Part shown: positions 2,899 to 24,773 of the stretch, in pieces | Layout of the letters: every line of letters begins with the position of its first letter | Numbering within the stretch: position 1 is the first letter of the stretch | DNA from: Haloferax volcanii DS2 | Lineage (GTDB): Archaea; Halobacteriota; Halobacteria; Halobacteriales; Haloferacaceae | Direction: 5' to 3' | Length of the DNA stretch: 32,000 bases | Assembly (NCBI RefSeq): GCF_000025685.1 | Contig: NC_013968.1 | Span: 30,001-62,000 of the forward strand | Made by a program: the position numbers and the translations under genes | Notes under the pieces: model-generated | Databases searched by the model: none | Told to the model about the DNA's origin: nothing | What the model saw: the letters and a program-made list of their open reading frames with translations, nothing else

Positions 2899-4296
2899 CA
2901 GTACCTCACAAAGCCGTTTAGTTAGAAGGTCTGCTTGCTGAAGATGTGTCCAACAACCAGCAAACAGACGATGAAATCCACGAGGACCAGCTCCTTAACT
3001 TCCTCGTCAACTCTCTTGACGAGGAAGTTGCTCTCTCACTCGCTGAAAACGCTGAACTCGATGCTGAAGACATCTACGAGGTCCTCGTCGGCGCCTGCGC
3101 CGACGGGACCTCGGTCTCTACACTCTGCAAGAGAAGCGAAGATGCACCTCACGAAAACTCCGTTCTCTACCATCTCCGCACCAAGTTCGACCTCGAGACG
3201 CTCGAACAAATCGGGAACACGCTCCTCCAGAAAGACGTTCTCGACGTCCTTCCCCAGCAGGTGGAGGTCTGCGCAGACCTCCACCTGCGGCCCTACTACG
3301 GCGACGAAGACGATACAGACGGCCTGTATCACTCACAAGCGAAGCGTGGAACCACCGCGTTTCACGCGTACGCGACACTGTACGCACGCGTGAAGAACAA
3401 ACGCTACACGCTGGCGGTGCGCCGTCTCGAAGACGGCGACACCGCCAGCAGTGTCCTCGCAGAGTTCCTCGGTATTCTCGACGGCCTTGACCTCGGTGTC
3501 AAGGCCGTCTATCTTGACCGCGAATTCTACGACAGCAAGTGTTTAACGCTGCTTCAGGCGCACAACCACGCCTACGTCATGCCGATCGTCCGCTGGGGAC
3601 GGACGATCAAGCGAGAACTCTCAGAAGGATGGAGTCGCGTGATTCAGCACAGTCTGACAGCGAGACTCGACGGTCACAGCTGGACCGTCGAGTTTCCCGT
3701 CTACATCGACTGTACCTACCAGAACGGACGGTACGACGAACATGGGGTGGCGCGTCACGGCTACGCCGCTGACGCGCCGTTCATCGACTCACCACGGGAC
3801 GCTCGATACCACTACGCGAAACGCTTCGGTATCGAGGCAAGCTATCGACTCTCCGAGCAAAGTATCGCGACGACCTCGACACAAAATCCGGTCGTACGGC
3901 TGTTGTACGTCGTGGTGAGCTTGCTGTTACAGAACGTGTGGCGGTATTTGCACTGGGAGTACGTGGCGACGCCCCGCCGTGGGGGGCGTCGCCTCTGGGA
4001 GTGGTCGTTCAAGGAGTTCATCAATATGGTCCGTCGAGCAGCGTGGACGGCCCTCGCGGTGCGTCGGGCCGTCCCCGCGAACCGACCACCAGACGACCGG
4101 TTCCACCGGTAACTCCCGACCGGGCTAGCCAACGGTGGGAGTGGCGACGCTGTCGCGTCGGCGGCAGCCGCCGCCGACAGCGACGGCTCTCCGCCGATCC
4201 GTCCATGATTCTGTCGTCGAGACCGCCAATGCAACCGCTCGGCCACAGAATTCAGGCTTCAGAGACAGCTAGGCGAGGATGCTTTGTGAGGTACTG
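2899..4296 (+). mobile_element. ISH3-family insertion sequence, copy 2 (1398 bp)
   Basis: IRs CAGTACCTCACAAAGC (2899-2914) and GCTTTGTGAGGTACTG (4281-4296). 5-bp direct repeat ATATT (2894-2898 and 4297-4301). Confidence 0.9.
2946..4112 (+). CDS. ISH3-family DDE transposase
   Basis: 388-aa ORF with a GTG start, near-identical to 737..1930. Confidence 0.85.
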   Translation: MSNNQQTDDEIHEDQLLNFLVNSLDEEVALSLAENAELDAEDIYEVLVGACADGTSVSTLCKRSEDAPHENSVLYHLRTKFDLETLEQIGNTLLQKDVLDVLPQQVEVCADLHLRPYYGDEDDTDGLYHSQAKRGTTAFHAYATLYARVKNKRYTLAVRRLEDGDTASSVLAEFLGILDGLDLGVKAVYLDREFYDSKCLTLLQAHNHAYVMPIVRWGRTIKRELSEGWSRVIQHSLTARLDGHSWTVEFPVYIDCTYQNGRYDEHGVARHGYAADAPFIDSPRDARYHYAKRFGIEASYRLSEQSIATTSTQNPVVRLLYVVVSLLLQNVWRYLHWEYVATPRRGGRRLWEWSFKEFINMVRRAAWTALAVRRAVPANRPPDDRFHR

Positions 4297-4492
4297 ATAT
4301 TTAGACTCGTAGAGCTCCAATAACCTTGAAACGTATTCGAGGAGGACATCTGGGACTCTTGAGATCGGTATGAGTACTGTGCAACAGCCAAGAACTATTC
4401 AGAATCGAAATGAAGAACGAACTACACAAGCCCGTTCGACGTGACAGCAAACATCCGATAGATTTAGACGTCGTGAATCAGAGGTATTCTAT

Positions 4493-5713
4493 ATGAGTCG
4501 TGGAGTTGTCGTCGATCTATTCTGCGGTGCAGGAGGTGCCTCTCTCGGGTTTGTTCAGGCGGGATACACTGTCGCGGGGGCCGTTGACATCAACGACGAA
4601 GCATTGGAAACGTACAAGCGAAATCTCTGCGACGCCGATCTTGACGAGTATCCTGGCGAGGTCACGTTCGACTCCCCTCTCAAGGGTAATCTAAATGCCA
4701 ACAAGGGCGGTCACGTCACCTTCGAGTACATACGAAACGAATTCGGTTTAGAACCCGGAGAGGTTGACGTCATCGCTGGGTGCCCTCCTTGCCAGAATTT
4801 CAGCAAGCTCAGAGATACGACGCCGTGGCCGGAGGACGAGCCAAAAGATGAGCTACTCCAGTCCTACGTGGAGTTAATTCGGGCAGAGAAACCCGGTGCG
4901 GTCTTCTTCGAAAACGTCCAGGGAATAACCAATAAGCGCGACGGAGAGACGACCTACTCGCAGTGGTTCAAAGATCAGATGAGGGGGATGACTCGCGACG
5001 ACGATCCCGAAGAGAAGGGATACGGAGTTAATCTAAAAGTCGTTAACGCAGCAGATTATGGAGTCCCGCAGCGAAGAATGCGTACGATAGGGATCTGTAT
5101 CTACGGTGCTTCTGATTCCGAAGTCGAATTTCCACCTGAGACTCACGCAAGAGAACCCGAAGACGGACTGAAAGAGAGATGGGTCACAGTAAAAGACGTA
5201 CTGAAAGAGGAATACGAACGAGGCCGATTGAAACAAGACCTCGATCTCGGTCAAAAGCAAGTTGGGATCGATGGGTATCCTGACGATCCTGCGCACCGAT
5301 CACGTCGTCACAACAGCAACACGGTCGAGACGATGAAAGCAATACGGCGACACGGCGATAGTTGGAAGGACCTGCGGGGAACGGAGGACGAAGAATTCAT
5401 TCGTGAATGTCACCGAGGTTTCGACACTCAAGCAGGTGCAGCGTACGGAATTATGGACTGGGAATCCCCTGCACCAACGCTAACTACTCGGTGTACAAAT
5501 TTTAGCTCGGGTCGCTACACACATCCAGAAGAGAATCGGACGATTACATTCCGGGAAGCAGCACTTCTAATGTCTTTTCCAGCAGATTTCAAGCTTCCAG
5601 ACAAGAACAGCGCAGCAGAGCGAGTAGTTGGGAATGCAGTTCCGCCTCAGCTTGTGAAGAGCATCGTTGAAGATCTAAATGTAGCCAGAAAGGAACCCCG
5701 CAAGATTGCTTGA
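4493..5713 (+). CDS. drmMII: DNA (cytosine-5)-methyltransferase, DISARM DrmMII-like
   Basis: The canonical C5-MTase motifs appear in order: I DLFCGAGG, IV GCPPCQNFS, VI FENV, VIII QRRMR, X GNAVPPQL. It is the first gene of a co-directional helicase/DUF1998/PLD cluster. Confidence 0.85.
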   Translation: MSRGVVVDLFCGAGGASLGFVQAGYTVAGAVDINDEALETYKRNLCDADLDEYPGEVTFDSPLKGNLNANKGGHVTFEYIRNEFGLEPGEVDVIAGCPPCQNFSKLRDTTPWPEDEPKDELLQSYVELIRAEKPGAVFFENVQGITNKRDGETTYSQWFKDQMRGMTRDDDPEEKGYGVNLKVVNAADYGVPQRRMRTIGICIYGASDSEVEFPPETHAREPEDGLKERWVTVKDVLKEEYERGRLKQDLDLGQKQVGIDGYPDDPAHRSRRHNSNTVETMKAIRRHGDSWKDLRGTEDEEFIRECHRGFDTQAGAAYGIMDWESPAPTLTTRCTNFSSGRYTHPEENRTITFREAALLMSFPADFKLPDKNSAAERVVGNAVPPQLVKSIVEDLNVARKEPRKIA

Positions 5714-5895
5714 AAGCACCTACAAGCGGAAATAACCCCGTACTGGGGAGAGTCACGAATTATTGGATAGCCTGCTCACCCCCAAATATTGCTGTAATTG
5801 AGAGTCAAGTCTGAAAACATGATATTCCGGAGAAATTATCCCTTACTGAAACTATTCTAACGGAACGTATATATGAGGTTTACAGAGAAAAATTT

Positions 5896-8424
5896 GTGGT
5901 CTTAACTAGAGATATGATGGGTGTAACGCTGGAAAATGCCCCGTACGAACTTCCTCCAACAGAGGGAACGCACTCTCTGTTAGTCCGAACTGCAATCCGG
6001 GAAGAACGCGATCTCTGTCTAATTCCGCCTACTCTCCGTCAAGAATATCTGGACCGTCACGCCCTCGAAGGTCTCTACGAAATGATGGGAATGGATCGTC
6101 GTGCCATCATGATTATGTCCAGAAATAGTGACATCCGTGATCGCTACGAAAAGATGGTCGGTCCGTTTCAATTTTCGACAGGGAGGTGGCCCCTCTCGTC
6201 AGTCAAGTCTGATGGGTCATTGGTGCCAAAGACTCAACACTACGTGACCGAAGATGCACCACCTGCAGTCATCTATGCAAAATGGGCGACTAGGCTGCCA
6301 AACCCAGAGCACGCTCAGGCGATTCAAGCTGTCCTCTACGACGAAAACGTCGGGTTTGACGAGGAACGCTTCGAGGCGTTCGAGCGATGGCGCGCTGCTG
6401 CCGACATACCTACCGTAGTCTACTACATCCGGGACCCACTCGGTAATACGTACGATCGTATCAAAGACGAGGTCGATTCGACGTGGATGTGGACTAAGTC
6501 CCGCCTTCGTAAAGTCTGTGAGTGGACCCGAGACGGGGGTGCCACGTATCAATCGCTAGTCGACCCAGAAACTATCCCACAATGCACGGTCAGAGAAACG
6601 CAATTGCTCAAAAATAAAACATCAGGGCAGTCTTACGAACCGCACGTCTGTAACACAGGTCCCGTTGCTGAGCAATTTGAGCGTGTATGGTCGGCGTACG
6701 AGGACTTCCAAACAGTAGAAGGCAAAATCGACGAGCGGGATCTTATGCTGGCTAAATTCTATCTCCGCGACACGGTTTCCCGATTTTCTCGGTTGGTTGC
6801 CCTCTTGGAGCAGAGCAACGTCTATCGGGCAAACCACGGGAAGGCGACGACCTTGTCAGGCCGAATTGGGGCACTCCGACAAATGCACTCGGATCTGACT
6901 GGCGACGCACAGGCCGGAGGAGGCGCACTACAACAAGCCATCTACGAGCTAGAGGATTTGGCCGAACTCTTGAACGATCCAGACAATCAAGCCTGGAAGC
7001 GTGGTGCAGTTCTGTCTGCCATGCTTCAAGTAACCGATAACGACGAGGGACTCATCATCGTCGCTCCAGACGAGCCTGAAGCGAAGGCGCTTGAAGCAGA
7101 CCTATACATTAACCGTAGGAAGTTCTGGGTCGAAGCAGAAGAACGAGTAACCATCTGCACGCCGAATTCGATTAACATCGAATCACCAGCAGACCACTTG
7201 CTTCTCTATGGACCTCCCAAATACGAGGACCGGTGGATACTTCGCTCTCCTCACGGAGCCAACGTTAGCGTCCTGGCTTATCCGCACGAACTCGGGTTAT
7301 TGTTTTCTCAAGCTAGTAGCCTTAATCACGCCGTCGAGGCAGCTACTCCCCGACAAATACCTCCAGAGGGTCCAGAAGATACTGGACGTATCCTTGCGAG
7401 TATTGCTGAAGAGCTCCCGAGAACACCCCTTTCGGCCGAGGAAGATAGAAACAAGCCACCGACCGTCGCTTGTTCTGACCTCGATGGCGTCCAGATATCT
7501 ATCCCAGACGCAGACTCCGTCGAAAAGGGTGAGATTTCTGGATCACAGACGTTCAAAGGTCACGAACAAGCGGATCAGAACAAGCGAGATAGGGTCAACA
7601 GCCTAATTGAACGAAGCTTAGCCAAGTTCGGCCAAGCGAGTGGGAGATATACACCCAGCAGCACTGGTGGTGGTGAAACATCCTCATCTCAGTCCGAATG
7701 GGAACGTCGCGATGTCGACGGCTGCATCGAATTAATCGGGCAAGATGGCTACCGGATGGCTAACAAGCCGGAGAAAACGGTCGAGGTCGTTCGTTTGGAT
7801 GCTGAGGTCCGCGTCAGTAAAGAGATGTCAAAAGTAATAGAGGGAGAGATTGTTGTTAGCGTTCGAGACCGAATGGAGATTCGATCCCACGTTGAACGGC
7901 AACTCTTCGACATGGGTGAGGCAGAGGTAGTCGTGAAAGCGAACAAGTGGAAAGATCACCTCGCACGTGAGATTGAGAGGCGTGGGGACACGTTCGAGGA
8001 ATTCAAGCAGCGGATAGAACAAACCGGAATCGAACCGAAAGGAGATGGTGCATACCGAAATTGGTACCACGGAACGATTACAATGCCAAAAGCACGAGAC
8101 TCGCTCTACTATATTACTGAAGCATACGATCTCGATGAAGTTCAGGGAGAGCTGGAAGTGTGCTGGACAGCAAATCGGACGATCCGACGTGTGAAAAACG
8201 CCCTCATCAACAAGTGGCTTGACCAAGCTCAAGCCGACCTTCTATCTAAAGCAGCTGACGTCGACGACCTCATCGATAATGATTTCGATCTCGACATTCG
8301 CCTATCCGACTTCGAGAAAGTCGATGACGAGGGTGAAGACCTAGTACTAGTTCATCAAATTAAGGAAATCAGACACGGCGTCACCGTTCCCCACAGTTAT
8401 CTGGGTACTTGGCGAACACCGTAA
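5896..8424 (+). CDS. drmE: large protein of unknown function in the DrmE position of a class 2 DISARM operon
   Basis: 842-aa uninterrupted ORF between the MTase and the helicase. I see no Walker, nuclease or MTase motifs. The assignment rests on size and position only. The start is either GTG 5896 or ATG 5914. Confidence 0.45.
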   Translation: MVLTRDMMGVTLENAPYELPPTEGTHSLLVRTAIREERDLCLIPPTLRQEYLDRHALEGLYEMMGMDRRAIMIMSRNSDIRDRYEKMVGPFQFSTGRWPLSSVKSDGSLVPKTQHYVTEDAPPAVIYAKWATRLPNPEHAQAIQAVLYDENVGFDEERFEAFERWRAAADIPTVVYYIRDPLGNTYDRIKDEVDSTWMWTKSRLRKVCEWTRDGGATYQSLVDPETIPQCTVRETQLLKNKTSGQSYEPHVCNTGPVAEQFERVWSAYEDFQTVEGKIDERDLMLAKFYLRDTVSRFSRLVALLEQSNVYRANHGKATTLSGRIGALRQMHSDLTGDAQAGGGALQQAIYELEDLAELLNDPDNQAWKRGAVLSAMLQVTDNDEGLIIVAPDEPEAKALEADLYINRRKFWVEAEERVTICTPNSINIESPADHLLLYGPPKYEDRWILRSPHGANVSVLAYPHELGLLFSQASSLNHAVEAATPRQIPPEGPEDTGRILASIAEELPRTPLSAEEDRNKPPTVACSDLDGVQISIPDADSVEKGEISGSQTFKGHEQADQNKRDRVNSLIERSLAKFGQASGRYTPSSTGGGETSSSQSEWERRDVDGCIELIGQDGYRMANKPEKTVEVVRLDAEVRVSKEMSKVIEGEIVVSVRDRMEIRSHVERQLFDMGEAEVVVKANKWKDHLAREIERRGDTFEEFKQRIEQTGIEPKGDGAYRNWYHGTITMPKARDSLYYITEAYDLDEVQGELEVCWTANRTIRRVKNALINKWLDQAQADLLSKAADVDDLIDNDFDLDIRLSDFEKVDDEGEDLVLVHQIKEIRHGVTVPHSYLGTWRTP

Positions 8425-8528
8425 ACGACGTGGTATTCTGGGGTGACGGTACTCGGTGTCTGTTGATTTAGTGTCCTCATCTGCTCGCATACGTTTAAGT
8501 CGATTCGATTAATTGACTATGTATTCAC

Positions 8529-11500
8529 ATGTCACGCGATGTCCCAGGACGTGACGCTCCGAGGTATACGCGGCCGCCCAATGACGCCTATGAACCGGAT
8601 TCAAACGTAGAGTACGTCCGCCGCCAGCTCGTGAACAACGTCCTGACGGCGGATCTCGAAGACCGAATCACCGGCCGAGGAGAGCAACACGAGGTCTTAT
8701 ACGGAGCTCGTCCACAAGACCAATTCTTCGCCGGTGCGCTACCTTCGCAATTCAAATACCGAGAAGCAAAAGCAAACGAGGAATCCTACGGAAACGTTGC
8801 TAAGCAGGTCTCGCCGTTCAAAGTCGGCGTTACGTTCCGACTTCCCCGCCACATTTCTGACGATGTAGAACTCACAGTACGACCGGATGCATTCGCCTTT
8901 CAGAGACAGCTCCCGACGTTCGAGGAACAGCAGCGCGAGCACAACGACAACACCGACGCATCAGTGCTCGATCAAGATCGAGAAACCTCAGACGAGTCAG
9001 AAAACGAGTCAGATGCCAACGCCGGCAGTTCACAGGGAACGACGGATCTCTTGCGAACGTACAAGCGATTAGATCCGGAATGGTCGTCGACATCCGTCAC
9101 AGGTGAGGAAATTAACGAACAGGTAGGGTGCGATGAGCCACTCACTCTGGACTTAGATCTTTCAATCCTCTACGAGAAGGCGTACGCTGTCGACCGTCGC
9201 TTCTGTGAACGTACGGACGGAGTGAGCGAAAATGAAGCGTCGATGCTCTCGGACGAGACACTATCGTCGGAGTCCGAGTTCGAGAATCATGTCTCAGCTG
9301 CGTACGACGGCCAAGAACTCACTCCTCTTTGGGACGCCCGGCTGGAGCTCGACGTTAGACCTGATGACGATGACGAGTTCCTTTTACTCACAGCCCGGTT
9401 GATTAATACTCACGGTGAAGAGTACAACCCCGACGACGAGGAGTATCAAGAACAGAACGATCCGGGTTACGAAGACTGGCGTTCGACTTTCTTCGATGTC
9501 GAAGTCGCAGTTACCGTCGACGGAGCGCCTCTGAAGGTCTTCGATTCGAACGAAATTGAAGACAAGTACCAGTACGACGGTCGAATCTTTGCCGTTGGTG
9601 AAAACGCGGCGACGGAACCGATATTTCCAGCCCATACTGACAAGACTGGACCTAATCGTGAACTGTACAGTGAACAGCCAGCGAACGACGACCCAGTCGG
9701 TGTACGAACGGAAATGGTTCCGCTGTACGAACAATCGCGCTACCTATCACGGAATCCCGACGACATCGCAGCCCCAATGGACGTTCTCGCCGGCGATGAA
9801 AGCGATGAGTCCATGTTCGACTGCTTAGAAGCGCTTGCAGCAGGCATGGAAGACGCCGTAGCTGACTATCGGGAGATCAAGTCCGAGATGGTCTCCGGGA
9901 AATCAAGCGAAGCGGCGGCGGAATTCGACAAAGCAGTTGCCGGATTTGAGGCCGACCATGAGCGAGTGTTAGCTGGTATCGAGTGTCTAAAGCAGGATCC
10001 GCGTGCGCGTCGCGCGTTCAAATACATGAACGAATCGTTCCAGGAGATGGGCTTCGATAAGTGGCGCACCTTTCAGATCGTCTTCATTCTGATGACGATT
10101 CCGGATATGCTCAAACAAGCAGACGAAGCCGGATCGGAAGTGAGCGTCTCTTGGGACAACGAAATACTCGAGACCCAGTTGGATGTCGCTGACGTCGTCT
10201 ATTTCCCGACGGGTGGCGGGAAAACGGAAGCGTATCTGGGGCTCGTCACGTTCACTGCGTTTCACGACCGGATGCGTGGAAAGACTCATGGAATGACTGC
10301 CTTTACGAAGTTCCCACTTCGGTTTTTGAGTTTGCAGCAGCTCCAGCGGATCGCAAACGTCCTTGCCAAGGCAGAAGAGATCCGCCGCCGAGAAAATCTG
10401 GGCGGCGACGAGTTCTCAGTCGGATACTTGGTTGGTTCCGGCAACACCCCAAACACGCTCCGAGCTGGGAAATACACGAACAACATCCGGAAAGCACAGG
10501 AAGACGAAGAATTCCAGAAGTCGGTCAAGTACGTCACTACGTGCCCGTTCTGCGGCGAGAAGGAGGTGTCTATAGATGGGGACCTCGAACAGGGTCGCAT
10601 CATACACCAGTGTGAGAATCCGGAATGTGATGAAGTCAAACGAAACGGCGGAGAGCCAGCCCCGCTTCCAGTATACGTTACTGACAGAGAGATTTACCGC
10701 TACACGCCGACGTTCGTTGTCTCGACCATCGACAAGATCTCCATCGTCGGTATGCAACGCCGTATGCGGGCCGTTCTCTTCGGACGAACGTCTCTTAAAT
10801 GCGCCAAACACGGGTACTCTGGTGAGAATCGATGTATTGCTGACACCGGCATTCTAAACGAGGCTGGCCAGTGCGATGAGGACGATTGGGAAGAGGTTGA
10901 CCCCGTCGACCCACCTAGCCTTCTTATTCAAGACGAGTTACACCTCCTCCGCGAAGAATTTGGTTCATTTGACTCTCACTACGAAACGCTTATTCAGCAT
11001 CTGAACCGTGCGTTTTCAGACGACACGTGGCACACAAAAATAGTCGCCGCGACGGCGACTATCAAGGGTGCCGAGCAGCAGGTAGAAGCGCTATACATGA
11101 AGGACACGAACGTCTTTCCATCACCCAGTCCGCGGTTAAAGCAATCTTTCTACGCGTACGCTCACCCGACGCGCATTCAGCGACGGATGCTCGGGGCACT
11201 TCCACGGACGCTCTCTCGGACCTACGCGATCGAAAAAATCCACGAGGAGTATGCGCGTGCAATTCAAGAGTACCGCGCCGCTCCTGAGACGCTCTACGAT
11301 GCACTAACGCAGGTGTCTGACGAGTACACACTGGAGCAGGCTGAACTCCCTTCAGACCCCACATCGCTTGAAGCGGTTATAGACGACATTCTTGACGACT
11401 ATGAAACGCAGGTCTCGTACCACTATTCACGCGACAACACCGACCTGATGAAGCGGGTTCTTCGGACGATGATCAACGTCCATCTTTCTGACGACGGCGA

Positions 11501-12353
11501 ACCATATTATCCCTTGAACGGCCAACTCATGACTGGTCAAACGCCCCTCGAAGACGTCAGCTCTGTCTTAGAGATCCTCGAGAATCTCGATGAACTAGAT
11601 AGCCCAGCAGACGCAGTTCACATGCTCATCGCAACCTCGATGATCAGTCACGGAGTGGACGTCGATGCGTTGGACTTCATCGGTTTCTTCGGCCTTCCGC
11701 GGAACACGGCCGAGTACATTCAGTCGTATTCACGCGTTGGGCGCAAGTGGCCAGGGACTGTGTTCCTACTCTTCGATCCGATGCGGACCCGCGATCGGTC
11801 CTACTACCGTCACTTCCAGTATCATCAGGAGTATCAGGACCTCTTAGTCGAAGCGACACCCCTAGAGAGATGGGCAGAGTACGCGATTAAGTGTACGATG
11901 CCCGGGGTCGTCTGTTCAATATTGATCCAATATTACGACGAGATCCTCGCCGGCAAAACGAGCATCCGATTGTACGATGGGGAGGGAGTTCAACAGGCCG
12001 TCACCAACGGTCATCTCAAATACGACGAAGTGCTTTCGCTGGTTCGCTCTGCTTACGGCGTAGATGGACAGCCATCAGATGGCTCAGAAAGTTCACGGAG
12101 CGGCGTCGAGCTCTACCGCCGACAGATCAACGCTAGATTTGACGAGATCTGGGACGCACTAATCGACCCAAACAACCTCATCGAACGACAACGCGCAAGG
12201 GATCCAGATACCGACGAGTCGAACTTCCTTACTGACGTCTTGAGACGGGGTGGCCAACGAACACCGATGCGCAACCTTCGCGACATCGACGATCAACTAT
12301 CTATCGGCCCAGACACAGACACGTCGCTCATCATCAACGGGTACCGCGGATGA
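8529..12353 (+). CDS. drmA: DExH-box superfamily 2 helicase, DISARM DrmA-like
   Basis: Motif I FPTGGGKTEAYLG, motif II LIQDELHLL, motif III ATATI, motif VI QSYSRVGR. A ~550-aa acidic N-terminal region precedes motif I. A CxxC...C Zn-ribbon-like insert (CPFCGEKE...CENPEC) lies between motifs I and II. Confidence 0.8.
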   Translation: MSRDVPGRDAPRYTRPPNDAYEPDSNVEYVRRQLVNNVLTADLEDRITGRGEQHEVLYGARPQDQFFAGALPSQFKYREAKANEESYGNVAKQVSPFKVGVTFRLPRHISDDVELTVRPDAFAFQRQLPTFEEQQREHNDNTDASVLDQDRETSDESENESDANAGSSQGTTDLLRTYKRLDPEWSSTSVTGEEINEQVGCDEPLTLDLDLSILYEKAYAVDRRFCERTDGVSENEASMLSDETLSSESEFENHVSAAYDGQELTPLWDARLELDVRPDDDDEFLLLTARLINTHGEEYNPDDEEYQEQNDPGYEDWRSTFFDVEVAVTVDGAPLKVFDSNEIEDKYQYDGRIFAVGENAATEPIFPAHTDKTGPNRELYSEQPANDDPVGVRTEMVPLYEQSRYLSRNPDDIAAPMDVLAGDESDESMFDCLEALAAGMEDAVADYREIKSEMVSGKSSEAAAEFDKAVAGFEADHERVLAGIECLKQDPRARRAFKYMNESFQEMGFDKWRTFQIVFILMTIPDMLKQADEAGSEVSVSWDNEILETQLDVADVVYFPTGGGKTEAYLGLVTFTAFHDRMRGKTHGMTAFTKFPLRFLSLQQLQRIANVLAKAEEIRRRENLGGDEFSVGYLVGSGNTPNTLRAGKYTNNIRKAQEDEEFQKSVKYVTTCPFCGEKEVSIDGDLEQGRIIHQCENPECDEVKRNGGEPAPLPVYVTDREIYRYTPTFVVSTIDKISIVGMQRRMRAVLFGRTSLKCAKHGYSGENRCIADTGILNEAGQCDEDDWEEVDPVDPPSLLIQDELHLLREEFGSFDSHYETLIQHLNRAFSDDTWHTKIVAATATIKGAEQQVEALYMKDTNVFPSPSPRLKQSFYAYAHPTRIQRRMLGALPRTLSRTYAIEKIHEEYARAIQEYRAAPETLYDALTQVSDEYTLEQAELPSDPTSLEAVIDDILDDYETQVSYHYSRDNTDLMKRVLRTMINVHLSDDGEPYYPLNGQLMTGQTPLEDVSSVLEILENLDELDSPADAVHMLIATSMISHGVDVDALDFIGFFGLPRNTAEYIQSYSRVGRKWPGTVFLLFDPMRTRDRSYYRHFQYHQEYQDLLVEATPLERWAEYAIKCTMPGVVCSILIQYYDEILAGKTSIRLYDGEGVQQAVTNGHLKYDEVLSLVRSAYGVDGQPSDGSESSRSGVELYRRQINARFDEIWDALIDPNNLIERQRARDPDTDESNFLTDVLRRGGQRTPMRNLRDIDDQLSIGPDTDTSLIINGYRG

Positions 12354-12447
12354 GTACACGCAACCGAGCACAGACGGCACTAATGCAGCTTACGACGACC
12401 CACCAATTTATGACCCAGACTCGACCACGACACCGAGGTGAACGGCA

Positions 12448-14433
12448 ATGACCGACGACGGACTCGTTATGGAACGAGGCCGGGCACAAGTGATGTATTC
12501 CTACGGCGAGGGGAACGTCGTCGATATGGGGGATTTAGGGGTCACTGCTGAAGTGCGACCTTGGCGGAACTCCTACGAGATTGAAGACATCGACAAAGAA
12601 CGGATCGTAACCGAAGTACAAAATCGCGCAAGAAGACATCTGAACCGAACCACAGGGAAAGTTTGGGAAGATCTCACTGTCGAGAACGTCGACATTTATC
12701 AACCATTCCGAGGTATAGAAACCCGGCTCTTCCCGACGGTGTTCTACTGTGAAGACTGTAAAAAAGTACACAGTAGCGATCGTGCTAAGCCACAAATGCT
12801 CCCAGACGATGGGAAGTGTACGGCCTGTGATGGACAGTTGACCCAATTGGCGTTCGTCAACGTCTGTCGATGCGGTGAACTCAAGGACCCAAGTCCAGCA
12901 CGTGGGTGTCAGAAGGACGGCCATGGTTACTCGAACTACCGCTTGCAAAAGACATCGAGCGGCCCAGCAACGTGGCGGTTCAGGTGTCAAGTCAACGGAT
13001 GCGGGGAATCGATGGGTGGGATGGCGAAATCGTGCCCCGTATGTAACGAAATGAGTGGCCCGCTGCCAACAGCATCCTCACAGATTTACTATGCGCAGCG
13101 ATTCGTTCGTGCCAACATTCCATTTGTGGACGTAGACCCTGGTGAGATTCCTCCCGATAAGCAATGGGCACGCGTGCTCGCTGCGGTGTACCTAGGCTAT
13201 CAGGATCTGGAGGATATGACGATCGAGGAACTGGCGACAGAAGAAGGAAAGATGAGCCAGTTCGACGAGATGGTGAAGTCGGGTGAAGATCCGGAAACGG
13301 TTAAACGGATTTTGGAGGGAATGGGGATATCACTGGAAGGTCGAGAATTGGCCCTACAGGAAACTCAACATATCACACCCATCGACGCCGAACCCCATGG
13401 AGAACCGGATGAGGCAGTCCGACAGCTCGCTTGGTCGAATACCGCTCATGCGCTCTTTACATTTATGCGTTCGACGGAGGGCTACGACGGCGACCAAGAC
13501 AAAATTCAGGATGTCGATTATCCAATCCCGACTCAGTTAGACGATCTTCTCTCGCAACCAGAGTTCCGACAAGATCATCCCCAGAGCTCACGGTATCGCG
13601 ATCAGCTTAACGCTAGCCACATCCGACGGGGATGGGTCGTCGATCAATTCCCTCTGTTGAACGTCCTGTACGGGTTCAGCCGGGGCGATCCAGAGCCAAA
13701 AAAGACTGATCTGAACCGATTTACTCACCCACGAGGAAAGAGCGCAATCCCCGTATTCGCAGACCGATCCCCATCAGAGGCAATCGTGTTAGAGGTGGAT
13801 CGGAAAGCCATCGTGAATTGGCTGGTGGCGAACGGAATTCTTCGCGAAGATGCAGACGATGATAGTCGACGAGCGATTCCAGATGTTGACGACGAACAGG
13901 CGCTACAAGAGTGGTTCCTTACGAATGTCGCAACTACAGAAATCGAGAATCCGTTCGACGACATCGAAGACGAAATTACTGATGCGGTCTACACCCTCCT
14001 TCACTCAATGAGTCACTGTCTACTCGCTCGAGCAGGCGAACAGTGTGGCCTAGCGACCGATACGCTCGGAGAGCGAATCTTCCCGAACGTCCCGGCCATC
14101 GTCATCTACGCCGCGACGACTGAATCGTTCTCGCTCGGAAGTATGTCGACGCTGTTCAAGACTCGACTTCACCCCTGGCTGTCACAAGCTCGCGAACTAG
14201 CAAGCGACTGCCTCCTCGACCCTGCGTGTGCAGAAGATCCGGAGGGGGCAGCCTGCGATGCCTGTATCCACATCTCGGAAACCTCATGTGAATATTTCAA
14301 TCACGCACTTGATCGCAGGTTGCTTGAAGGAGGTGACGGCCTCGTCGGGTTCTGGACGCGCGAAATTTCCAACGGAATGGGTACCGTCGGAGGAGCCGAA
14401 CAGGACGTGGCGAGCACAGCGAGCGACGAATAG
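12448..14433 (+). CDS. drmB: DUF1998-type protein, DISARM DrmB-like
   Basis: C-terminal Cys signature CLLDPAC...GAACDACIHISETSCEYFNHALDRRLL, typical of DUF1998 (MrfA-type Zn-binding domain). Several N-terminal CxxC clusters. SD-like GAGGTGA (12435-12441) lies 6 nt before the ATG, and an in-frame TGA at 12439 excludes an earlier start. Confidence 0.8.
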   Translation: MTDDGLVMERGRAQVMYSYGEGNVVDMGDLGVTAEVRPWRNSYEIEDIDKERIVTEVQNRARRHLNRTTGKVWEDLTVENVDIYQPFRGIETRLFPTVFYCEDCKKVHSSDRAKPQMLPDDGKCTACDGQLTQLAFVNVCRCGELKDPSPARGCQKDGHGYSNYRLQKTSSGPATWRFRCQVNGCGESMGGMAKSCPVCNEMSGPLPTASSQIYYAQRFVRANIPFVDVDPGEIPPDKQWARVLAAVYLGYQDLEDMTIEELATEEGKMSQFDEMVKSGEDPETVKRILEGMGISLEGRELALQETQHITPIDAEPHGEPDEAVRQLAWSNTAHALFTFMRSTEGYDGDQDKIQDVDYPIPTQLDDLLSQPEFRQDHPQSSRYRDQLNASHIRRGWVVDQFPLLNVLYGFSRGDPEPKKTDLNRFTHPRGKSAIPVFADRSPSEAIVLEVDRKAIVNWLVANGILREDADDDSRRAIPDVDDEQALQEWFLTNVATTEIENPFDDIEDEITDAVYTLLHSMSHCLLARAGEQCGLATDTLGERIFPNVPAIVIYAATTESFSLGSMSTLFKTRLHPWLSQARELASDCLLDPACAEDPEGAACDACIHISETSCEYFNHALDRRLLEGGDGLVGFWTREISNGMGTVGGAEQDVASTASDE

Positions 14434-14459
14434 CAACAGTAGTAGAGATCGACCTTACA

Positions 14460-15461
14460 ATGGAATCTAATTTCTCGATGTTTGATGGAACGCCGATTTG
14501 CTCTGATTTCACAGCGGCAGCCGTGATAAGTGAACCCGACCGCTTACACTACCTCCGGATCGGTCTCGCAATCCTTGGGAGCACCATAGAATCAGACTCA
14601 GAAGAAGCTTCAGACCATCGATTAGCAGCGGTCGTGGACGTTCCAGGTCTTCCTGTGCCAGTCAGAGATCGGTCATATTCGTTCACCCGATCTCAATTGA
14701 ATGCCGTACTCGCGGCCTTTGACGAACGGCTTAGCCCACGAGAGTTCAACGCTATCTCCTCTGCACTTTGTAACGCTGGTTTTGCCCATGAAATGACAAC
14801 CAGCCAAGGGTACGCTCATTACGAGATTCAAGTAGTCTCTCCCCTTGGTGTGCTACGAATCATCGACCAATTACTCATTGCGAACGTTAGTGCTCCTGAC
14901 GTAATTGCCGATTCTAATGCCAGCTCTTCATCTGCTGAATTAGTCGCGACTCTCCCTGCAGATGTTCAATCGAAACTACCCCACTCAGTCCGTCCGATAC
15001 GCATCTCTATTCGGCGCTACTTGGCTGAAGCAACGGATACAGTCCGAATCGCAAATCCATATTTCGACGATACCGAACACGTGTTGAACGATCTAGCGGC
15101 ACTTCCTCGTCGTGGCGTAGACCTCAAGATGGTGACGCGTGAAGTTGATGTCGATAATCCAAACCAATCAGCAGTCAACGCTATTGAGAACATCACCGGG
15201 CAGCTTTCGGACGATGAGCGGAAGCACCTCTTCGTACGAGACTTTTACGACACCAACCAACATGACAAGCAAATCGGGGCCACGCATGCAAAAGCAGTCA
15301 TCATCGACGAGCAAGTCGCGTATTTGGGTAGTGCAAATCTCACTCGACTATCGTTGACTGGCAATTTTGAATTAGGCGTATTGTTACGTGGTGAAGCAGT
15401 ACCCGATCTCGTCGCGGTATTCGATGCTATGTTCGACTATTCAAGGCCAATCCCCATCTAA
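14460..15461 (+). CDS. drmC: phospholipase D-family (single HKD) nuclease, DISARM DrmC-like
   Basis: HKD motif THAKAVIIDEQVAYLGSANLT near the C-terminus. Starts 26 nt after the drmB stop. The ~170-aa N-terminal region has no recognisable motif. Confidence 0.75.
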   Translation: MESNFSMFDGTPICSDFTAAAVISEPDRLHYLRIGLAILGSTIESDSEEASDHRLAAVVDVPGLPVPVRDRSYSFTRSQLNAVLAAFDERLSPREFNAISSALCNAGFAHEMTTSQGYAHYEIQVVSPLGVLRIIDQLLIANVSAPDVIADSNASSSSAELVATLPADVQSKLPHSVRPIRISIRRYLAEATDTVRIANPYFDDTEHVLNDLAALPRRGVDLKMVTREVDVDNPNQSAVNAIENITGQLSDDERKHLFVRDFYDTNQHDKQIGATHAKAVIIDEQVAYLGSANLTRLSLTGNFELGVLLRGEAVPDLVAVFDAMFDYSRPIPI

Positions 15462-15605
15462 TTTCAACTTTTTGCTAAGTTGGAGTTGGCATGACGTGTG
15501 GATTTGTCTCAGATCATTTGCTTTATTTACTGATAGGTTATAAGCGCATATTCCCAACTCATTAGAAGCAAGAGATTATCAGATAGTCAATCTAACAAAT
15601 TCCCT

Positions 15606-16760
15606 ATGGCTGCAGACTGGACGGTTCAGCACCACACGGGTGAGTTCTCGTCCGATACAAAACAGAATCTACGCAATCTGTATTCAGGGCACTGTGCAGT
15701 GTGCGGACAAAAACGTGAATCTCCCTTTGGGCACCTTGAGGCAGAAGCTGCACACATCCATCCCGCACAACACGGAGGACCGGATACAGAAGCGAACGGC
15801 TTGCTTCTCTGCCGACAATGCCACTGGGGCTTCGATTCCGGCTGGCTCAGTCTGACAGACGATGCCAGAATCATCGTCTCAAACGACGACGCTGCGGATG
15901 GCTACGAGTACTTTCAACAATTCAGTAACGACCCTATTGAACCACCCCGCGTGAACGATCTTGAGCCGTTGCCACGCTTCACACAGATCCACCGCAAGCT
16001 CTCTGGGTTCGACCCTATCAACACTGGCGACCAACTAACCATCGGCGGACTACGCAGTGGGAAGGTACGTCTCATTGACGGGAGACAGGTCATCGTCGAA
16101 GGGAGCACAGACAAAGCACTCGTCGTCAACTGCGAGGTTACAAGTGTAGGTTCGCAAACAGTCCGCTGTTCTCATCAGACTACCCTCGAGCAAAGAGTGG
16201 AAACTGACTCTGGTCGAACCGAGTCTCCGTTCAAATTAGACCCGGTGGACTACTCATTTGACAAACTCGAGGAGTACGTGCGCGAGATCAAGCGGGACTA
16301 TTCGGGTGTTGTCCAAAAATGGGAATGGGGGCGTCTGTTCCGTAATGGGCGAACAAAATATGGATTGTCACATAAGGACATCGCGGATACAATCAATGTA
16401 GAAGGGGCCAGCGAACTGCAAGTTCAACGGGCAGAACGGGTGTACGAGATGTTCCCTGACCGCGGCTATGAGGGTAACGAAATCCCATTTTCCGCAATCG
16501 CTGAACTACAACGTATCTTCCCGAACACCGAAGATGCCCGTGCAGCATATGACTGTATCGCCGCGACGGACATTTCCCTGACGACGATGGAAACGCGCGC
16601 GTGGGTTGAACTTCTATTGTCCGAGAGTGAAGTGACTCGTGAAACGGTCAGAGACTCCGTAGAAGAGTACGTGCCGAAATCTAATGTCGGGCTGAGTGAA
16701 CGCGTTAGTCGAATCCTCGCAGTCCACAATGAATACCTGTCAACGTTTACCCCGAGTTAG
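15606..16760 (+). CDS. HNH endonuclease fusion protein (N-terminal HNH, uncharacterised middle and C-terminal regions)
   Basis: CAVCG...EAAHIHP...GPDTEANGLLLCRQCHWGFD is an HNH (HNH_2-like) motif in residues ~30-80. The remaining ~300 aa are unassigned. A possible HTH lies around KYGLSHKDIADTI. Confidence 0.7.
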   Translation: MAADWTVQHHTGEFSSDTKQNLRNLYSGHCAVCGQKRESPFGHLEAEAAHIHPAQHGGPDTEANGLLLCRQCHWGFDSGWLSLTDDARIIVSNDDAADGYEYFQQFSNDPIEPPRVNDLEPLPRFTQIHRKLSGFDPINTGDQLTIGGLRSGKVRLIDGRQVIVEGSTDKALVVNCEVTSVGSQTVRCSHQTTLEQRVETDSGRTESPFKLDPVDYSFDKLEEYVREIKRDYSGVVQKWEWGRLFRNGRTKYGLSHKDIADTINVEGASELQVQRAERVYEMFPDRGYEGNEIPFSAIAELQRIFPNTEDARAAYDCIAATDISLTTMETRAWVELLLSESEVTRETVRDSVEEYVPKSNVGLSERVSRILAVHNEYLSTFTPS

Positions 16761-17162: not shown

Positions 17163-17738
17163 CTACCCGTCAATCATCTCGTGGAGATGTATCGTGCGTT
17201 CGTTCAGCGTCTCCAACGCTTGGGAATGGCTCTCAACTTCAGACTCTAACGCCGACGTTCTATCCTCTAAAGTTGAAAGCCGGGACACCGCCTCATCGAG
17301 GTCCTCAACAACCATTGATAGCTGGTCCCCACCGTCGCTATCCTGCTCGTCTGCGAGGTCGTCGACGCGGTCGTGCAGATGGCTGAGCGCCGTCGACAAG
17401 TCCGACACCTCGTGCCGTAGGTCAGCCACATCCCCCTCGGAAACGCCAACTCGTACTTCGGTCTGGTCGTCGAGGTCACGAGCGACGCGCTCACCTTCGG
17501 CGGTCAGCGCATACACGTTCGCAGGAATCGGAGCGCCGACGTCCTCCTCACCCACCTTCTCAATCAGCCCCATCTCCGCCAGCGACCGCGCCTGTTTGCC
17601 GAGGTTCGAGGTCGTCATCTCACCTATCGATCTCTTGATATTAGATGTATTTCCCCGCCCACCACGCTCGTCGAGAGCCGACAGAATTTCCCGCTGAGTT
17701 TCGTTCAACTGCTCCATATCCAACACGAAACACGCCAC
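17163..17738 (-). CDS. winged-helix (MarR/ArsR-like) DNA-binding protein with acidic coiled-coil C-terminal half
   Basis: The N-terminus (QREILSALDERGGRGNTSNIKRSIGEMTTSNLGKQARSLAEMGLIEK) has a wHTH pattern. The C-terminal half has heptad-like, acidic repeats. The start is probably the ATG at 17717 (MEQLNETQ). Confidence 0.6.
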   Translation of the reverse strand: MACFVLDMEQLNETQREILSALDERGGRGNTSNIKRSIGEMTTSNLGKQARSLAEMGLIEKVGEEDVGAPIPANVYALTAEGERVARDLDDQTEVRVGVSEGDVADLRHEVSDLSTALSHLHDRVDDLADEQDSDGGDQLSMVVEDLDEAVSRLSTLEDRTSALESEVESHSQALETLNERTIHLHEMIDG

Positions 17739-20865: not shown

Positions 20866-21685
20866 TCAGAGAGTCGCTTTGACAGCGTGTTTGAGTGCTT
20901 CTCGACCGGGTTTTCTGAAGAGTTCGCTGCGTAGCTGAAAGGCGCGGAGATACTGTGTCAACTTGTCCTTCGAGACGCCTCGATGCGGCGAGAGCCACCG
21001 TCGCGCCAGCGACGCGTGGCTCTCGCAGGTGTTGACGTGAACATCTCCATCAGCGTACTCGCCGTCACCGTGGACGACGTATTCGCGGTGGAACTCGTCG
21101 TCGTCCTCCAGTGGGTCGTATGCCCGAAGTCCGTCGGTGTAGACGGTCAGCGACTCCTCCTCATGGTCAGCGAAGAGGAGTCGCACTGTCGATTCGTCAG
21201 CGGATTTCGCTGGGACGACGTATCGCTGCCCCGTTCCACGGTCAACGATGGTGAAGACGGGTGGTTTGTCTCCCTCATACGAACCACGCCCACGCGTGGA
21301 GAGGCCACGCGAGCGCGACTCTTGGTCGCGCTCGCGGCCTTTCAATCCGGCAGAGACGTACACTTCGTCGATTTCGACCGGTCCAACGAGGTCGAGCTGA
21401 GGCGCGTCGAGCGCTCTGGTAAAGCGCTCGACGCGACGGTGCATCGTCTTGTAGGTAACACCGATCTCCCGCTGAAGTTGGCGGAGACTCGTGTTAAACC
21501 GTAAGAACGCGTAAATCGAGAACAACCACTTGCGGAGCGCAACCTTTGAGTGAGCGAAAATTGTGCCCGTCTTATCGTTGAACGTGCGGTCGCAATTCTT
21601 ACAGAGATAGCGTTGAAACGCCCCATAGCTGCCGTTCGTGACCGTTCGGTCAGAACGGCAGCGGGGGCATTCGACGCCGTCACGC
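20866..21685 (-). pseudogene. IS1595-family transposase, C-terminal ~270 codons, severed from its start by the IS insertion
   Basis: The frame is open from the insertion junction. It encodes the Zn ribbon ECPRCRSDRTVTNGSYGAFQRYLCKNCDRTF followed by a DDE region. The first 21 codons lie at 23143-23205. Confidence 0.8.
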
Positions 21686-23130
21686 CATCTGTTCTAGTTT
21701 AGTAGCGATCAAAGCCGAACTCACCTCGTTCAACCTGCTCGCGTAACCGATCTCTGTGTGGATTTGGATTTCGTGACGCCCACAGCAACAGCTCGTCCAA
21801 ATCCGGCAGTCCGTAGCCCAACTCAACCATGAGATACAGTTGGATCAGATGAGCGTGGCGTTCGACGGCTAGCGAACAGCGACGCCGAGGGAGCCGCGAC
21901 GCCGACGAGTCGGCGTCTGCGGCGGCTTCGCCCTCTCGCTGTCTTGCCTCAAGTGACCGCAACTCATCCACGATTACACGGCTCATCATCAGCGAAATTG
22001 CCGACATGATGATCAGCGCCTCGATGATGTAGCCGTCGGTCGTCTTGATCTCGTCCAAGCCGAACCGCGATTTCAGCTCCTTGAACAGCAGTTCGACCTC
22101 CCAGCGCGCCCGATAGAGCTGCGCGATATCGGGCGCGCTGTAGCTTTCTCTCGCCAGATTCGTCAGATACAGATGATACTCGTCGGTCTTCTCGTTACGT
22201 AGTCCGACCAGTCGAAACGTCCGGGTCGCGCTGGCGCCCGACCCTCGTTTGCGCTCGAACGAGAGCGTGATGCGGACGTCGATCTCCTGTCGCTGCAGGT
22301 CGTCGAGGACGGCCTGCAGCGACTCTCCTTCCAGCGGAATGCTGTTGCCTCGCCACGTTCGCAGTTCTTCGACAATCTCGAAGTTCGCGTCGTCTTTGAC
22401 ACGAGAGACGAACCAACCGTCGTTCTTGTCGATGCGGTCGAACAGCCAGAAGTCGTAAAAGCCCAAATCAAGGAGAATGAGGGCGTCAGCTACCCACTCG
22501 CCGGTGGGTAGCTGACTCCGTTCATGAGTCGTCCCATCGGTTGTCCGGAATCGTGTCGGGAGCCCAGTCGAGAGAGATTCGGTGAGGTGAAGTTTCAGTT
22601 CGGCTTGATGGTCGCCGGTTGCTGTGTAGATATCAGCGGCGTCCTGGTACAGCGAAACGATGGTTGCGTCAGCAATGAGGACGTCTCGAAAGCGTTCGAG
22701 ACGGCCGTTCAAATCTTCTCGTCCGGTATCGAGATTCTCGATTGCGTCATCGAGAATCTCTCGAAGGAGTGCAACGAATCCTGGTTCGAACCAGTCGTGG
22801 AACGATGCGTAGGAGAGTTCGTCACAGTCAGCCATCTCGACGTAGCGTTCGAGAAATGCTTGGAGAGAGCGGTCTGAGCCAGCAGCGAAGCCAAACGAGA
22901 GTGTGTAGAACAGCGCAACGATGTCGAATTTCCGCTCTCGTTGGACGAGATTCGTTGCGCGAGCGCGCTCGCGCAACTCATCAGAGGGAAACGCTCTTTG
23001 AATCCGGTCAACTATGACCGAATCCGGTGGGCTGTAGGTCATACTTCCCACCGGGTTTCTCAATCAGGTAGTTGCGACGATATCAAATCAACAGACAGCA
23101 ACTGGATTCTTCGTTAAACTAGAACGGATG
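21686..23130 (-). mobile_element. IS4-family (ISH8-type) insertion sequence nested in the IS1595-family element
   Basis: IRs CATCTGTTCTAGTTTA (21686-) and CATCCGTTCTAGTTTA (reverse complement of -23130). Target duplication GCCGTCACGC(CA), 10-12 bp, at 21676-21685(87) and 23131-23140(42). The uninterrupted target sequence is visible in the copy at 31780-31800. Confidence 0.85.
21699..23063 (-). CDS. IS4-family DDE transposase
   Basis: 454-aa ORF with the IS4 Y-x2-R-x3-E-x6-K signature (YRARWEVELLFKELK) and the candidate catalytic stretches IADATIV and LLDLGFYD. The start may be the downstream Met (MTYSPPDS). Confidence 0.85.
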   Translation of the reverse strand: MRNPVGSMTYSPPDSVIVDRIQRAFPSDELRERARATNLVQRERKFDIVALFYTLSFGFAAGSDRSLQAFLERYVEMADCDELSYASFHDWFEPGFVALLREILDDAIENLDTGREDLNGRLERFRDVLIADATIVSLYQDAADIYTATGDHQAELKLHLTESLSTGLPTRFRTTDGTTHERSQLPTGEWVADALILLDLGFYDFWLFDRIDKNDGWFVSRVKDDANFEIVEELRTWRGNSIPLEGESLQAVLDDLQRQEIDVRITLSFERKRGSGASATRTFRLVGLRNEKTDEYHLYLTNLARESYSAPDIAQLYRARWEVELLFKELKSRFGLDEIKTTDGYIIEALIIMSAISLMMSRVIVDELRSLEARQREGEAAADADSSASRLPRRRCSLAVERHAHLIQLYLMVELGYGLPDLDELLLWASRNPNPHRDRLREQVERGEFGFDRY

Positions 23131-23205: not shown

Positions 23206-23300
23206 TCGTGTCGGACACCGCTAACGCGGTGTCCTTGCCCTCTTCGATTCCAGAGCAACAGCTGAACTCTATCAACAATCTCCTACAGAAGAGCGATTGT

Positions 23301-24757: not shown

Positions 24758-24773
24758 ACGTAGACATAAATAT

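Follow-up and report, generated by a model that had tools for sequence, protein, structure and literature searches.

Plasmid pHV1 of Haloferax volcanii DS2 carries a probable class 2 DISARM locus

We analysed a 32,000-nt stretch of the Haloferax volcanii DS2 genome (NC_013968.1, positions 30,001 to 62,000; further referred to as the window), which belongs to plasmid pHV1. The window contains five adjacent genes encoding the components of a DISARM defence system: a C5 cytosine DNA methyltransferase (DrmMII), DrmE, a helicase (DrmA), a DUF1998 protein (DrmB) and a phospholipase D (PLD) family nuclease (DrmC). With a probability of about 0.8 these genes constitute a complete class 2 DISARM locus drmMII-drmE-drmA-drmB-drmC whose mode of action is the one derived from bacterial systems. 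The genes are intact, co-directional open reading frames (ORFs) of the forward strand that together span positions 4493-15461 (Table 1). These are exactly the coordinates assigned by an initial reading of the DNA made without database searches (the sequence-only reading), and every motif quoted there was found. drmMII lies 182 bp upstream of drmE; the subsequent gaps are 104, 94 and 26 bp long, and internal promoters between the five genes are possible. Together with the next gene downstream, which encodes an HNH protein, the cluster forms a run of six consecutive forward-strand ORFs. Exact matches in GenBank are ADE05226 (methyltransferase), ADE05273 (DrmA), ADE05244 (DrmB), ADE05238 (DrmC) and ADE05242 (HNH protein); the UniProt entries for these five proteins are D4H0D0-D2_HALVD, and the contig that encodes them is 85,092 bp long.

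The ORFs of the window were scanned with Pfam (16 ORFs) and PADLOC (18 ORFs), the PADLOC assignments being matches to profiles of its hidden Markov model library. Contiguous PADLOC matches were obtained for all five genes, in the order DrmMII/C5 methyltransferase, DrmE, DrmA, DrmB, DrmC. Chance similarity is unlikely given the profile E-values of 0 (DrmA), 3e-132 (DrmB), 4e-102 (DrmE), 7e-46 (DrmC) and 1e-52 (PF00145 for the methyltransferase). The lengths of the five proteins agree with those of their homologues, the catalytic motifs are kept in the methyltransferase and the PLD protein, and the helicase motifs are intact. All five proteins are acidic, with isoelectric points of 4.5-5.0, 14-18.5% of D+E and 8-13% of K+R, as could be expected from the sequence-only reading, which had called them strongly acidified.

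The methyltransferase, encoded by HVO_C0040, matches PF00145 above the cut-off (1.2e-52, 179.8 bits) and the NCBIfam model TIGR00675 (2.9e-41, 142 bits with the cut-off at 100.65). Five motifs of C5 methyltransferases, all of them noticed in the sequence-only reading, were located: I (DLFCGAGG, aa 8-15), IV (GCPPCQ, aa 96-101), VI (ENV, aa 140-142), VIII (QRRMR, aa 193-197) and X (GNAVPP, aa 380-385). Among the PADLOC profiles, the generic MTase_II (1.8e-72) and DruM models outscore the DrmMII models (up to 4e-44).

DrmA is a superfamily 2 (SF2) helicase of the YprA family. It matches the PADLOC profile PDLC02576 with 1049 bits over residues 5-1271, the NCBIfam model DISARM_DrmAS (6e-125) and two Pfam families, PF00271 Helicase_C (30.4 bits, cut-off 23.5) and PF00270 DEAD (35.3 bits, cut-off 26). 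The Walker A, DELH and QSYSRVGR motifs, from which a DExH helicase had been proposed, are all present (Table 1), and the RecA1 domain holds two inserted cysteine clusters. Residues 494-1130 align with the solved DrmA of Serratia (7s9v_A, 3.8e-66), which is its sole significant match in the PDB. The N-terminal part of DrmA contains a strongly acidic low-complexity stretch at residues ~135-175 (nt ~8930-9055; NDNTDASVLDQDRETSDESENESDANAGSSQG). In the Serratia protein the autoinhibitory trigger loop comprises residues 176-232 (PMC9142583), and the acidic stretch might occupy the position of such a loop.

The 661-aa protein DrmB has been named 'DUF1998 domain-containing protein' by NCBI and UniProt. 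The sequence-only reading also regarded it as a DUF1998 protein, and proposed to drop the DISARM assignment if it failed to match DUF1998. In the literal sense it did fail: PF09369/DUF1998 in the current Pfam-A gives no match even at E<=10, nor does any other Pfam family. The assignment itself is upheld by other comparisons. DrmB matches the PADLOC profile (2.8e-132) and NCBIfam DrmB_fam (6.6e-36). As a single sequence, residues 510-626 align with the DUF1998 module in the structure of Serratia DrmB (7s9v_B, 1.6e-11), so that cysteines 588, 594, 603 and 606, which form a C-terminal Cys4 motif, correspond to the zinc ligands C559, C565, C581 and C584 (ligands according to PMC9142583). All seven haloarchaeal DrmB proteins compared have these four cysteines, and a profile built from the seven finds DrmB as the sole match in the PDB (2.6e-14). 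Further cysteine clusters are located at residues 101-199. By this alignment DrmB carries the DUF1998 zinc module, encoded apart from the helicase, and the Pfam null is overridden.

DrmC is a single-HKD PLD protein, as proposed initially. Its PLD domain (residues 185-326) matches PF13091 (PLDc_2; 2.4e-18, 66.7 bits, cut-off 27) and PF00614 (5.3e-6, 26.7 bits, cut-off 21.9), and it includes both characteristic motifs, HAKAVIID (HxK(x)4D, residues 276-283) and GSANL (GSxN, residues 290-294). The N-terminal ~180 residues have no characterised domain. The DrmC profile of PADLOC matches at 7.2e-46, and the NCBIfam model DISARM_DrmC_I at 2e-20, below its cut-off.

The large protein in which the sequence-only reading had seen no motifs, and which it took for the additional component of class 2, is DrmE: the PADLOC profile matches it over residues 13-837, that is, over the full length (4.2e-102). 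The ORF as called mechanically starts from a GTG codon, and the GenBank gene call is shorter (726 aa). As close homologues are 835-836 aa long and start with MMSVTL or MSVTL, we moved the start, which probably is the ATG at 5914 or 5917. NCBIfam DrmE_fam scores 54.7 bits (5.5e-15), below its cut-off of 80, and the Pfam match to DrmE_C (5.6e-4) falls short of the gathering score. Of 1.84 billion cluster representatives, 190 were retrieved with a profile built from haloarchaeal DrmE proteins, and all ten of the distant matches sampled passed the DrmE_fam cut-off. Hence the membership of the window protein in this family is supported transitively. No sequence-related structure was found in the PDB, and no relatives in the scan of viral contigs. 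Scanning genome contigs with the DrmE profile yielded three loci, a number that depends on peptide patterns and is no gauge of prevalence.

An AlphaFold2 model of DrmE was built from 14 sequences (pLDDT 70.7, pTM 0.55). Its best Foldseek matches are SF2 helicases of the RIG-I/MDA5/Dicer/Hef/FANCM type (E from 1e-6 to 1e-5, probability 1.0) at low query-normalised TM-scores of 0.25-0.32. The Walker A motif GKT is absent throughout the family alignment, which features a YP(T/S)-like remnant and, further on, a hydrophobic strand ending with D or E. With moderate confidence, the model suggests that DrmE proteins have a helicase-like fold of two RecA domains that lost the P-loop.

Table 1. Features of the cluster and its surroundings. 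Positions are nucleotides of the window unless residues (aa) are indicated.
Feature	Position	Strand	Description and basis
drmMII	4493..5713	+	C5 cytosine DNA methyltransferase, 406 aa, HVO_C0040 (ADE05226); PF00145, TIGR00675, PADLOC
drmE	5914..8424	+	~836 aa; mechanical ORF from GTG 5896 (842 aa), start probably at ATG 5914 or 5917; PADLOC DrmE
drmA	8529..12353	+	SF2 (YprA-family) helicase, 1274 aa; PADLOC, NCBIfam, Pfam, 7s9v_A
DrmA Walker A, PTGGGKTEAYLG	aa 560-571, nt 10206-10241	+	motif location
DrmA DELH	aa 802-805, nt 10932-10943	+	motif location
DrmA motif VI, QSYSRVGR	aa 1065-1072, nt 11721-11744	+	motif location
drmB	12448..14433	+	OB-CON-DUF1998 zinc-module partner of DrmA, 661 aa; PADLOC, NCBIfam, 7s9v_B
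DrmB C-terminal Cys signature, GAACDACIHISETSCEYFNHALDRRLL	aa 600-626	+	motif location
drmC	14460..15461	+	single-HKD phospholipase D family nuclease, 333 aa; PF13091, PADLOC
Candidate archaeal TATA box, TTTAGA	4463..4468	+	~27-30 nt upstream of the methyltransferase ATG; read from sequence
T-rich tract, TTTCAACTTTTTGC	15462..15475	+	directly after the drmC stop codon; read from sequence
HNH protein gene	15606-16760	+	384 aa, ADE05242; N-terminal HNH domain
ISH3-family transposase genes (two)	737-1930, 2946-4112	+	directly upstream of the locus
IS1595-type transposase	20866-21525	-	downstream of the locus
IS4/DDE_Tnp_1-type transposase	21699-23063	-	downstream of the locus
orc1/cdc6	26333-27616		beside an AT-rich stretch (GC 0.40-0.47 at 23-26 kb)

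Class 2 is defined by drmABC and drmMII, drmE being optional (bioRxiv 10.1101/2021.12.28.474362). The markers of class 1, the SNF2 helicase DrmD and the N6-adenine methyltransferase DrmMI, were found by neither Pfam nor PADLOC among the scanned ORFs of the window. As the cluster contains everything the definition lists and neither class 1 marker, it was assigned to class 2. This is the class chosen in the sequence-only reading, and the PADLOC profiles, the NCBIfam DISARM models and the homology to 7S9V, the solved complex of DrmA and DrmB, bear it out.

An SF2 YprA-type helicase, a DUF1998 zinc domain and, frequently, PLD nucleases also occur in the Dpd, BRIGADE, ARMADA and Druantia systems, one of which the cluster could represent instead of DISARM. 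BRIGADE has been reported from halophilic archaea only, and DrmA has a weak PADLOC match to DpdF (1.2e-3). Those systems, however, have other accessory genes and normally a single protein in which DUF1998 is fused to the helicase, separate genes for the two being the hallmark of DISARM among YprA systems (bioRxiv 10.1101/2025.09.15.676423). The window cluster has the split arrangement, it includes DrmE, and its helicase scores 15 bits with DpdF versus 1049 bits with DrmA. The deazaguanine-synthesis, BrxHII, PglX and DruH-type families were not matched among the scanned ORFs, and the sole significant matches in the PDB were DrmA and DrmB chains. Membership in another YprA-type system is thus hardly credible. 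BRIGADE and Dpd, both expected to have a fused YprA helicase-DUF1998 protein, genes for 7-deazaguanine synthesis and insertion, DpdG and DpdHI/BrxC, were considered specifically and rejected given the split genes and the accessory families unmatched in the window ORFs.

Among the closest known systems is the class 2 DISARM of Bacillus paralicheniformis ATCC 9945a (Ofir et al. 2018). As described in citing papers, its components are the same (DrmMII, DrmE, DrmA, DrmB and DrmC), the helicase and DUF1998 are likewise encoded by separate genes, and the PLD protein has a single HKD motif. The H. volcanii proteins differ in being acidified and scoring below the NCBIfam trusted cut-offs, and with bacterial DrmA proteins the window DrmA has only the helicase core in common (25-33% identity). 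The predicted recognition site is GTCGAC, as opposed to CCWGG in the Bacillus system. Moreover, the host is an archaeon, and the system is known there from its genes. In the Bacillus prototype the methyltransferase gene is said to stand at the 3' end of the cluster; in H. volcanii it stands at the 5' end. A match on a Bacillus cereus plasmid was rejected as a guide to the order of genes in the prototype, since it is class 1-like and leaves that order unsettled. The class 1 system of Serratia sp. SCBI, solved by cryo-electron microscopy (7S9V, 7S9W; PMC9142583), has DrmA and DrmB proteins homologous to those of the window in the regions listed above, with conserved helicase motifs and four DUF1998 zinc cysteines. 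In contrast to it, the H. volcanii locus has neither DrmD nor DrmMI, and the N-terminal half of DrmA does not align.

The comparisons above establish what the parts are; how they work is inferred from the studies of bacterial DISARM (bioRxiv 10.1101/2021.12.28.474362; PMC9142583). The product of HVO_C0040 would mark resident DNA, presumably at the predicted site GTCGAC. DrmA, an ATP-driven helicase, would pair with the separately encoded OB-CON-DUF1998 zinc module of DrmB, and the DrmA-DrmB complex would load on incoming DNA, viral or plasmid, at its single-stranded 5' ends, the ATPase of the complex being damped on methylated DNA. DrmE, predicted to lack the P-loop, would probably serve as a non-catalytic DNA-binding or scaffolding partner; in the Bacillus class 2 system DrmE is required (bioRxiv 10.1101/2021.12.28.474362). 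DrmC, a single-HKD nuclease that would act as a dimer, is a candidate DNA-degrading effector, and in the bacterial systems tested it was dispensable.

Several points weigh against the reading of the five genes as a complete and functioning DISARM locus. The NCBIfam DISARM models match all four core proteins significantly, each below the curated or trusted cut-off, which we attribute to the divergence of the haloarchaeal clade, and DrmB has the Pfam null described above. The structural model behind the role proposed for DrmE is of moderate confidence, and a class 1 system is the main source of the mechanistic detail. The searchable literature contains no functional measurement of this or any archaeal DISARM, in agreement with the statement of the sequence-only reading that none has been tested experimentally. 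H. volcanii is routinely transformed with plasmids grown in E. coli, an indication that unmethylated plasmid DNA is not strongly restricted. Single-molecule real-time (SMRT) sequencing of H. volcanii H26 and of a strain with multiple deletions of restriction-modification genes, which keeps HVO_C0040, revealed no 5-methylcytosine (5mC) motif, and the authors judged that HVO_C0040 probably does not methylate (Ouellette et al. 2018, PMC5867850).

The gene and protein of that study are identical with those described here (ADE05226, 406 aa, pHV1 of DS2). HVO_C0040 was described as an "orphan" Type II 5mC methyltransferase with the recognition site GTCGAC predicted by REBASE-style homology, and it was the sole restriction-modification gene remaining in the multi-deletion strain. 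An upstream transposase was the only genomic context mentioned (PMC5867850). Thus the gene appears there as a lone, transposase-flanked and apparently inactive one, with no mention of DISARM. In the present analysis it opens a DISARM cluster of five genes, and the phenotype to be expected from its deletion changes accordingly. The published null is limited by the fact that SMRT sequencing without Tet treatment is a weak detector of 5mC. Within the window, GTCGAC is neither avoided nor enriched (22 sites versus 24.4 expected).

Since no 5mC signal was seen in the published work, the activity of the locus in H. volcanii is the chief uncertainty. The system could be genetically intact and yet silent in its present host, a recently acquired passenger of pHV1 flanked by insertion sequences (IS) that provides neither methylation nor immunity in the laboratory. 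Apart from the SMRT result and the ease of transformation, this would agree with the ISH3, IS1595 and IS4 transposases on its flanks, with its low GC content (~0.52) and with the fate of a relative on plasmid pNRC200 of Halobacterium salinarum NRC-1, where a lone drmE (L001 9959-12466) is bounded by ISH27-2, ISH32 and ISH8. As other H. salinarum plasmids, e.g. pKBTZ01_286, carry the complete E-A-B-C core (letters denote drm genes) plus a methyltransferase at the same orc1-adjacent position, pNRC200 presents a case of IS-mediated decay of DISARM. In H. volcanii, by contrast, all five ORFs are full-length with intact catalytic motifs. In comparisons with two relatives having 81-92% protein identity, each gene has a ratio of nonsynonymous to synonymous substitutions (dN/dS) of 0.04-0.12, with dS of 0.5-1.2. 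Hence the genes have been maintained by purifying selection, which implies long-term constraint in the lineage. In addition, HVO_C0040 transcripts have been reported in DS2 (PMC5867850), and class 1 DISARM methylates only a part of its sites (bioRxiv 10.1101/2021.12.28.474362), which, like the poor sensitivity of SMRT to 5mC, reduces the weight of the methylation null. We consider a silent locus unlikely, though by no means negligible.

The same gene set was found in at least eight other haloarchaeal loci, on plasmids and contigs. In the closest relatives, two metagenomic lineages with DrmA and DrmB 92% identical to those of H. volcanii, the order is MTase-E-A-B-C (MTase, methyltransferase gene). 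In Halorubrum saccharovorum DSM 1137 (DrmA identity 74%) it is E-A-B-C-MTase on one strand, and in Halalkalicoccus subterraneus and on pKBTZ01_286 E-A-B-C is followed by a convergent methyltransferase gene. The position of the methyltransferase is therefore fluid among haloarchaeal loci, and both the order noted in the sequence-only reading and the E-A-B-C-MTase order to which it was opposed exist. The megaplasmid loci of H. salinarum (pKBTZ01_286), H. saccharovorum, H. subterraneus, Halorhabdus tiamatea and others resemble the pHV1 locus in encoding four full-length core homologues (DrmA identity 43-74%), in being plasmid-borne and in often adjoining orc1. They differ from it by the downstream methyltransferase, on the same or the convergent strand, which may belong to a separate, 373-aa lineage. 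In the PGAP annotation these loci have only the labels 'DrmE family protein' or 'helicase-related protein'.

Two lineages of methyltransferases are present in the loci. One comprises the 406-aa enzyme of the window and its relatives with 84% and 60% identity; members of the other are 373 aa long and 38-39% identical to it. A metagenomic locus (L007) with DrmA and DrmB 92% and DrmE and DrmC 82-83% identical to those of the window has the 373-aa enzyme, 38% identical, at the same 5' position (8519-9640). Its counterpart in the Halalkalicoccus locus (L010 18495-19616), a far more distant relative, shares 78% identity with it. Since a nearly identical core carries an enzyme of the other lineage akin to the Halalkalicoccus one, the methyltransferase module seems to have been exchanged between DISARM cores. 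In a third clade, formed by Halobaculum, Haloplanus and a metagenome-assembled genome (DrmA identity 49%), E-A-B-C has no C5 methyltransferase gene within 10 kb. A conserved, divergently transcribed gene for a 394-aa protein with a weak similarity to Mrr_cat (Type IV restriction) is found there instead, as in the Halobaculum magnesiiphilum plasmid (L002 8541-9725) and Haloplanus litoreus (L005 7833-9017). This clade may represent a methyltransferase-less variant of DISARM.

These relatives bear on two further alternatives. HVO_C0040 could be independent of the system, an orphan (as published) or mobile Type II enzyme that merely neighbours a DrmEABC module working without cognate methylation. 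Consistent with this are the 182-bp gap and the possible separate promoter between the methyltransferase gene and drmE, the substituted enzyme in L007 and the loci with no C5 methyltransferase gene within 10 kb. On the other hand, a C5 methyltransferase gene adjoins the core in the window, L004, L007, L008/L009, L010 and pKBTZ01_286, whatever the side or strand; dN/dS for the methyltransferase is 0.08, so that it evolves under purifying selection like the core; and the methyltransferase of Bacillus class 2 is needed to avoid toxicity (bioRxiv 10.1101/2021.12.28.474362). An unrelated orphan enzyme is accordingly improbable. The other alternative concerns the core. In this haloarchaeal clade DrmE-A-B-C might be largely indifferent to the type or presence of a methyltransferase and distinguish self from non-self not by motif methylation, but by the structure of DNA ends sensed by DrmAB and a RIG-I-like, P-loop-less DrmE. 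This is suggested by the other-lineage enzyme in a 92% relative, by the relatives with no methyltransferase within 10 kb and by the absence of SMRT-detectable methylation by HVO_C0040. We regard it as a rather doubtful reading; if it is true, H. volcanii would become the first model archaeon for the dissection of end-based discrimination.

Annotation alone has placed class 2 DISARM in Freyarchaeia and in proviruses of Woesearchaeales, so archaeal DISARM as such is not new, and the pHV1 locus adds a divergent new member to a known type of system. It is recognisable by standard defence profiles, yet it has not been called DISARM in public annotation or the searchable literature, where we found no paper linking Haloferax or any haloarchaeon to DISARM or naming the neighbouring locus tags. 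The value of the locus lies in its placement in the main haloarchaeal genetic model. So far class 2 has been characterised in a single Bacillus system, and the H. volcanii locus makes both class 2 and DrmE directly testable. Plasmid pHV1 is carried by standard laboratory strains of H. volcanii. Gene deletion tools, a strain lacking the other methyltransferases but keeping HVO_C0040, and at least one isolated virus are available. If HVO_C0040 is DrmMII and not an inactive orphan, its deletion is predicted to be toxic only in the presence of intact drmEABC. This role could possibly explain why HVO_C0040 alone stayed in the multi-deletion strain, an idea absent from PMC5867850. For DISARM in general, the exchange of methyltransferases among nearly identical cores and the helicase-like DrmE provide hypotheses.

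Candidate expression signals were found at both ends of the cluster. The position of the candidate TATA box (Table 1) would suggest a leaderless methyltransferase mRNA. The tract TTTCAACTTTTTGC is a putative archaeal oligo-T terminator closing the cluster. A scan for sigma-70 promoters and terminators stayed at the background level, the sigma-70 model being inapplicable to an archaeon.

The nearest relatives of the HNH protein encoded downstream of drmC are modification-dependent nucleases of the TagI and ScoMcrA types. Its homologues are exclusively haloarchaeal, ~383 aa long, and stand alone in the surroundings of defence genes or mobile elements, with Fic, GmrSD or other HNH genes as neighbours. 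The C-terminal ~250 residues are conserved but have no assigned domain; the model of the protein is poor (pLDDT 59.9), and its Foldseek matches, TRAM-like and ParB-like, are sub-threshold. We considered the gene as a sixth member of the cluster and rejected this, since its homologues are not found beside DISARM, the close DISARM relatives lack it, and the T-run follows the drmC stop codon. It probably is an independent neighbour in the same defence island, a single-gene restriction-type defence. Separately, in the closest MTase-E-A-B-C relatives (L008 1380-3293, L009 249-2162) an SRA-HNH nuclease (ScoMcrA-like, 5mC-reading) and an HhH-GPD glycosylase are encoded directly upstream of the methyltransferase. 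The HNH domain of this nuclease is 36% identical to that of the window protein.

Transposase genes lie on both sides of the locus, and as their families differ, no composite transposon is evident. The region 23000-27616, which includes orc1/cdc6, is 92-95% identical to the Haloferax gibbonsii plasmids pHG4 and pHGLR and probably is the replication origin region of pHV1. The flanks of the window thus fit a plasmid, given orc1/cdc6 next to an AT-rich region and the identity to the H. gibbonsii plasmids. Megablast of the operon against the PLSDB collection matched the ISH3 element alone, pHV1 evidently being outside that collection. A 191-aa ORF at 17163-17738 of the reverse strand has a weak similarity to HxlR-type helix-turn-helix proteins (Pfam, 2.8e-4) and to LmuB (PADLOC, 2.5e-5); its H. 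gibbonsii counterpart is annotated as 'chromosome segregation protein'.

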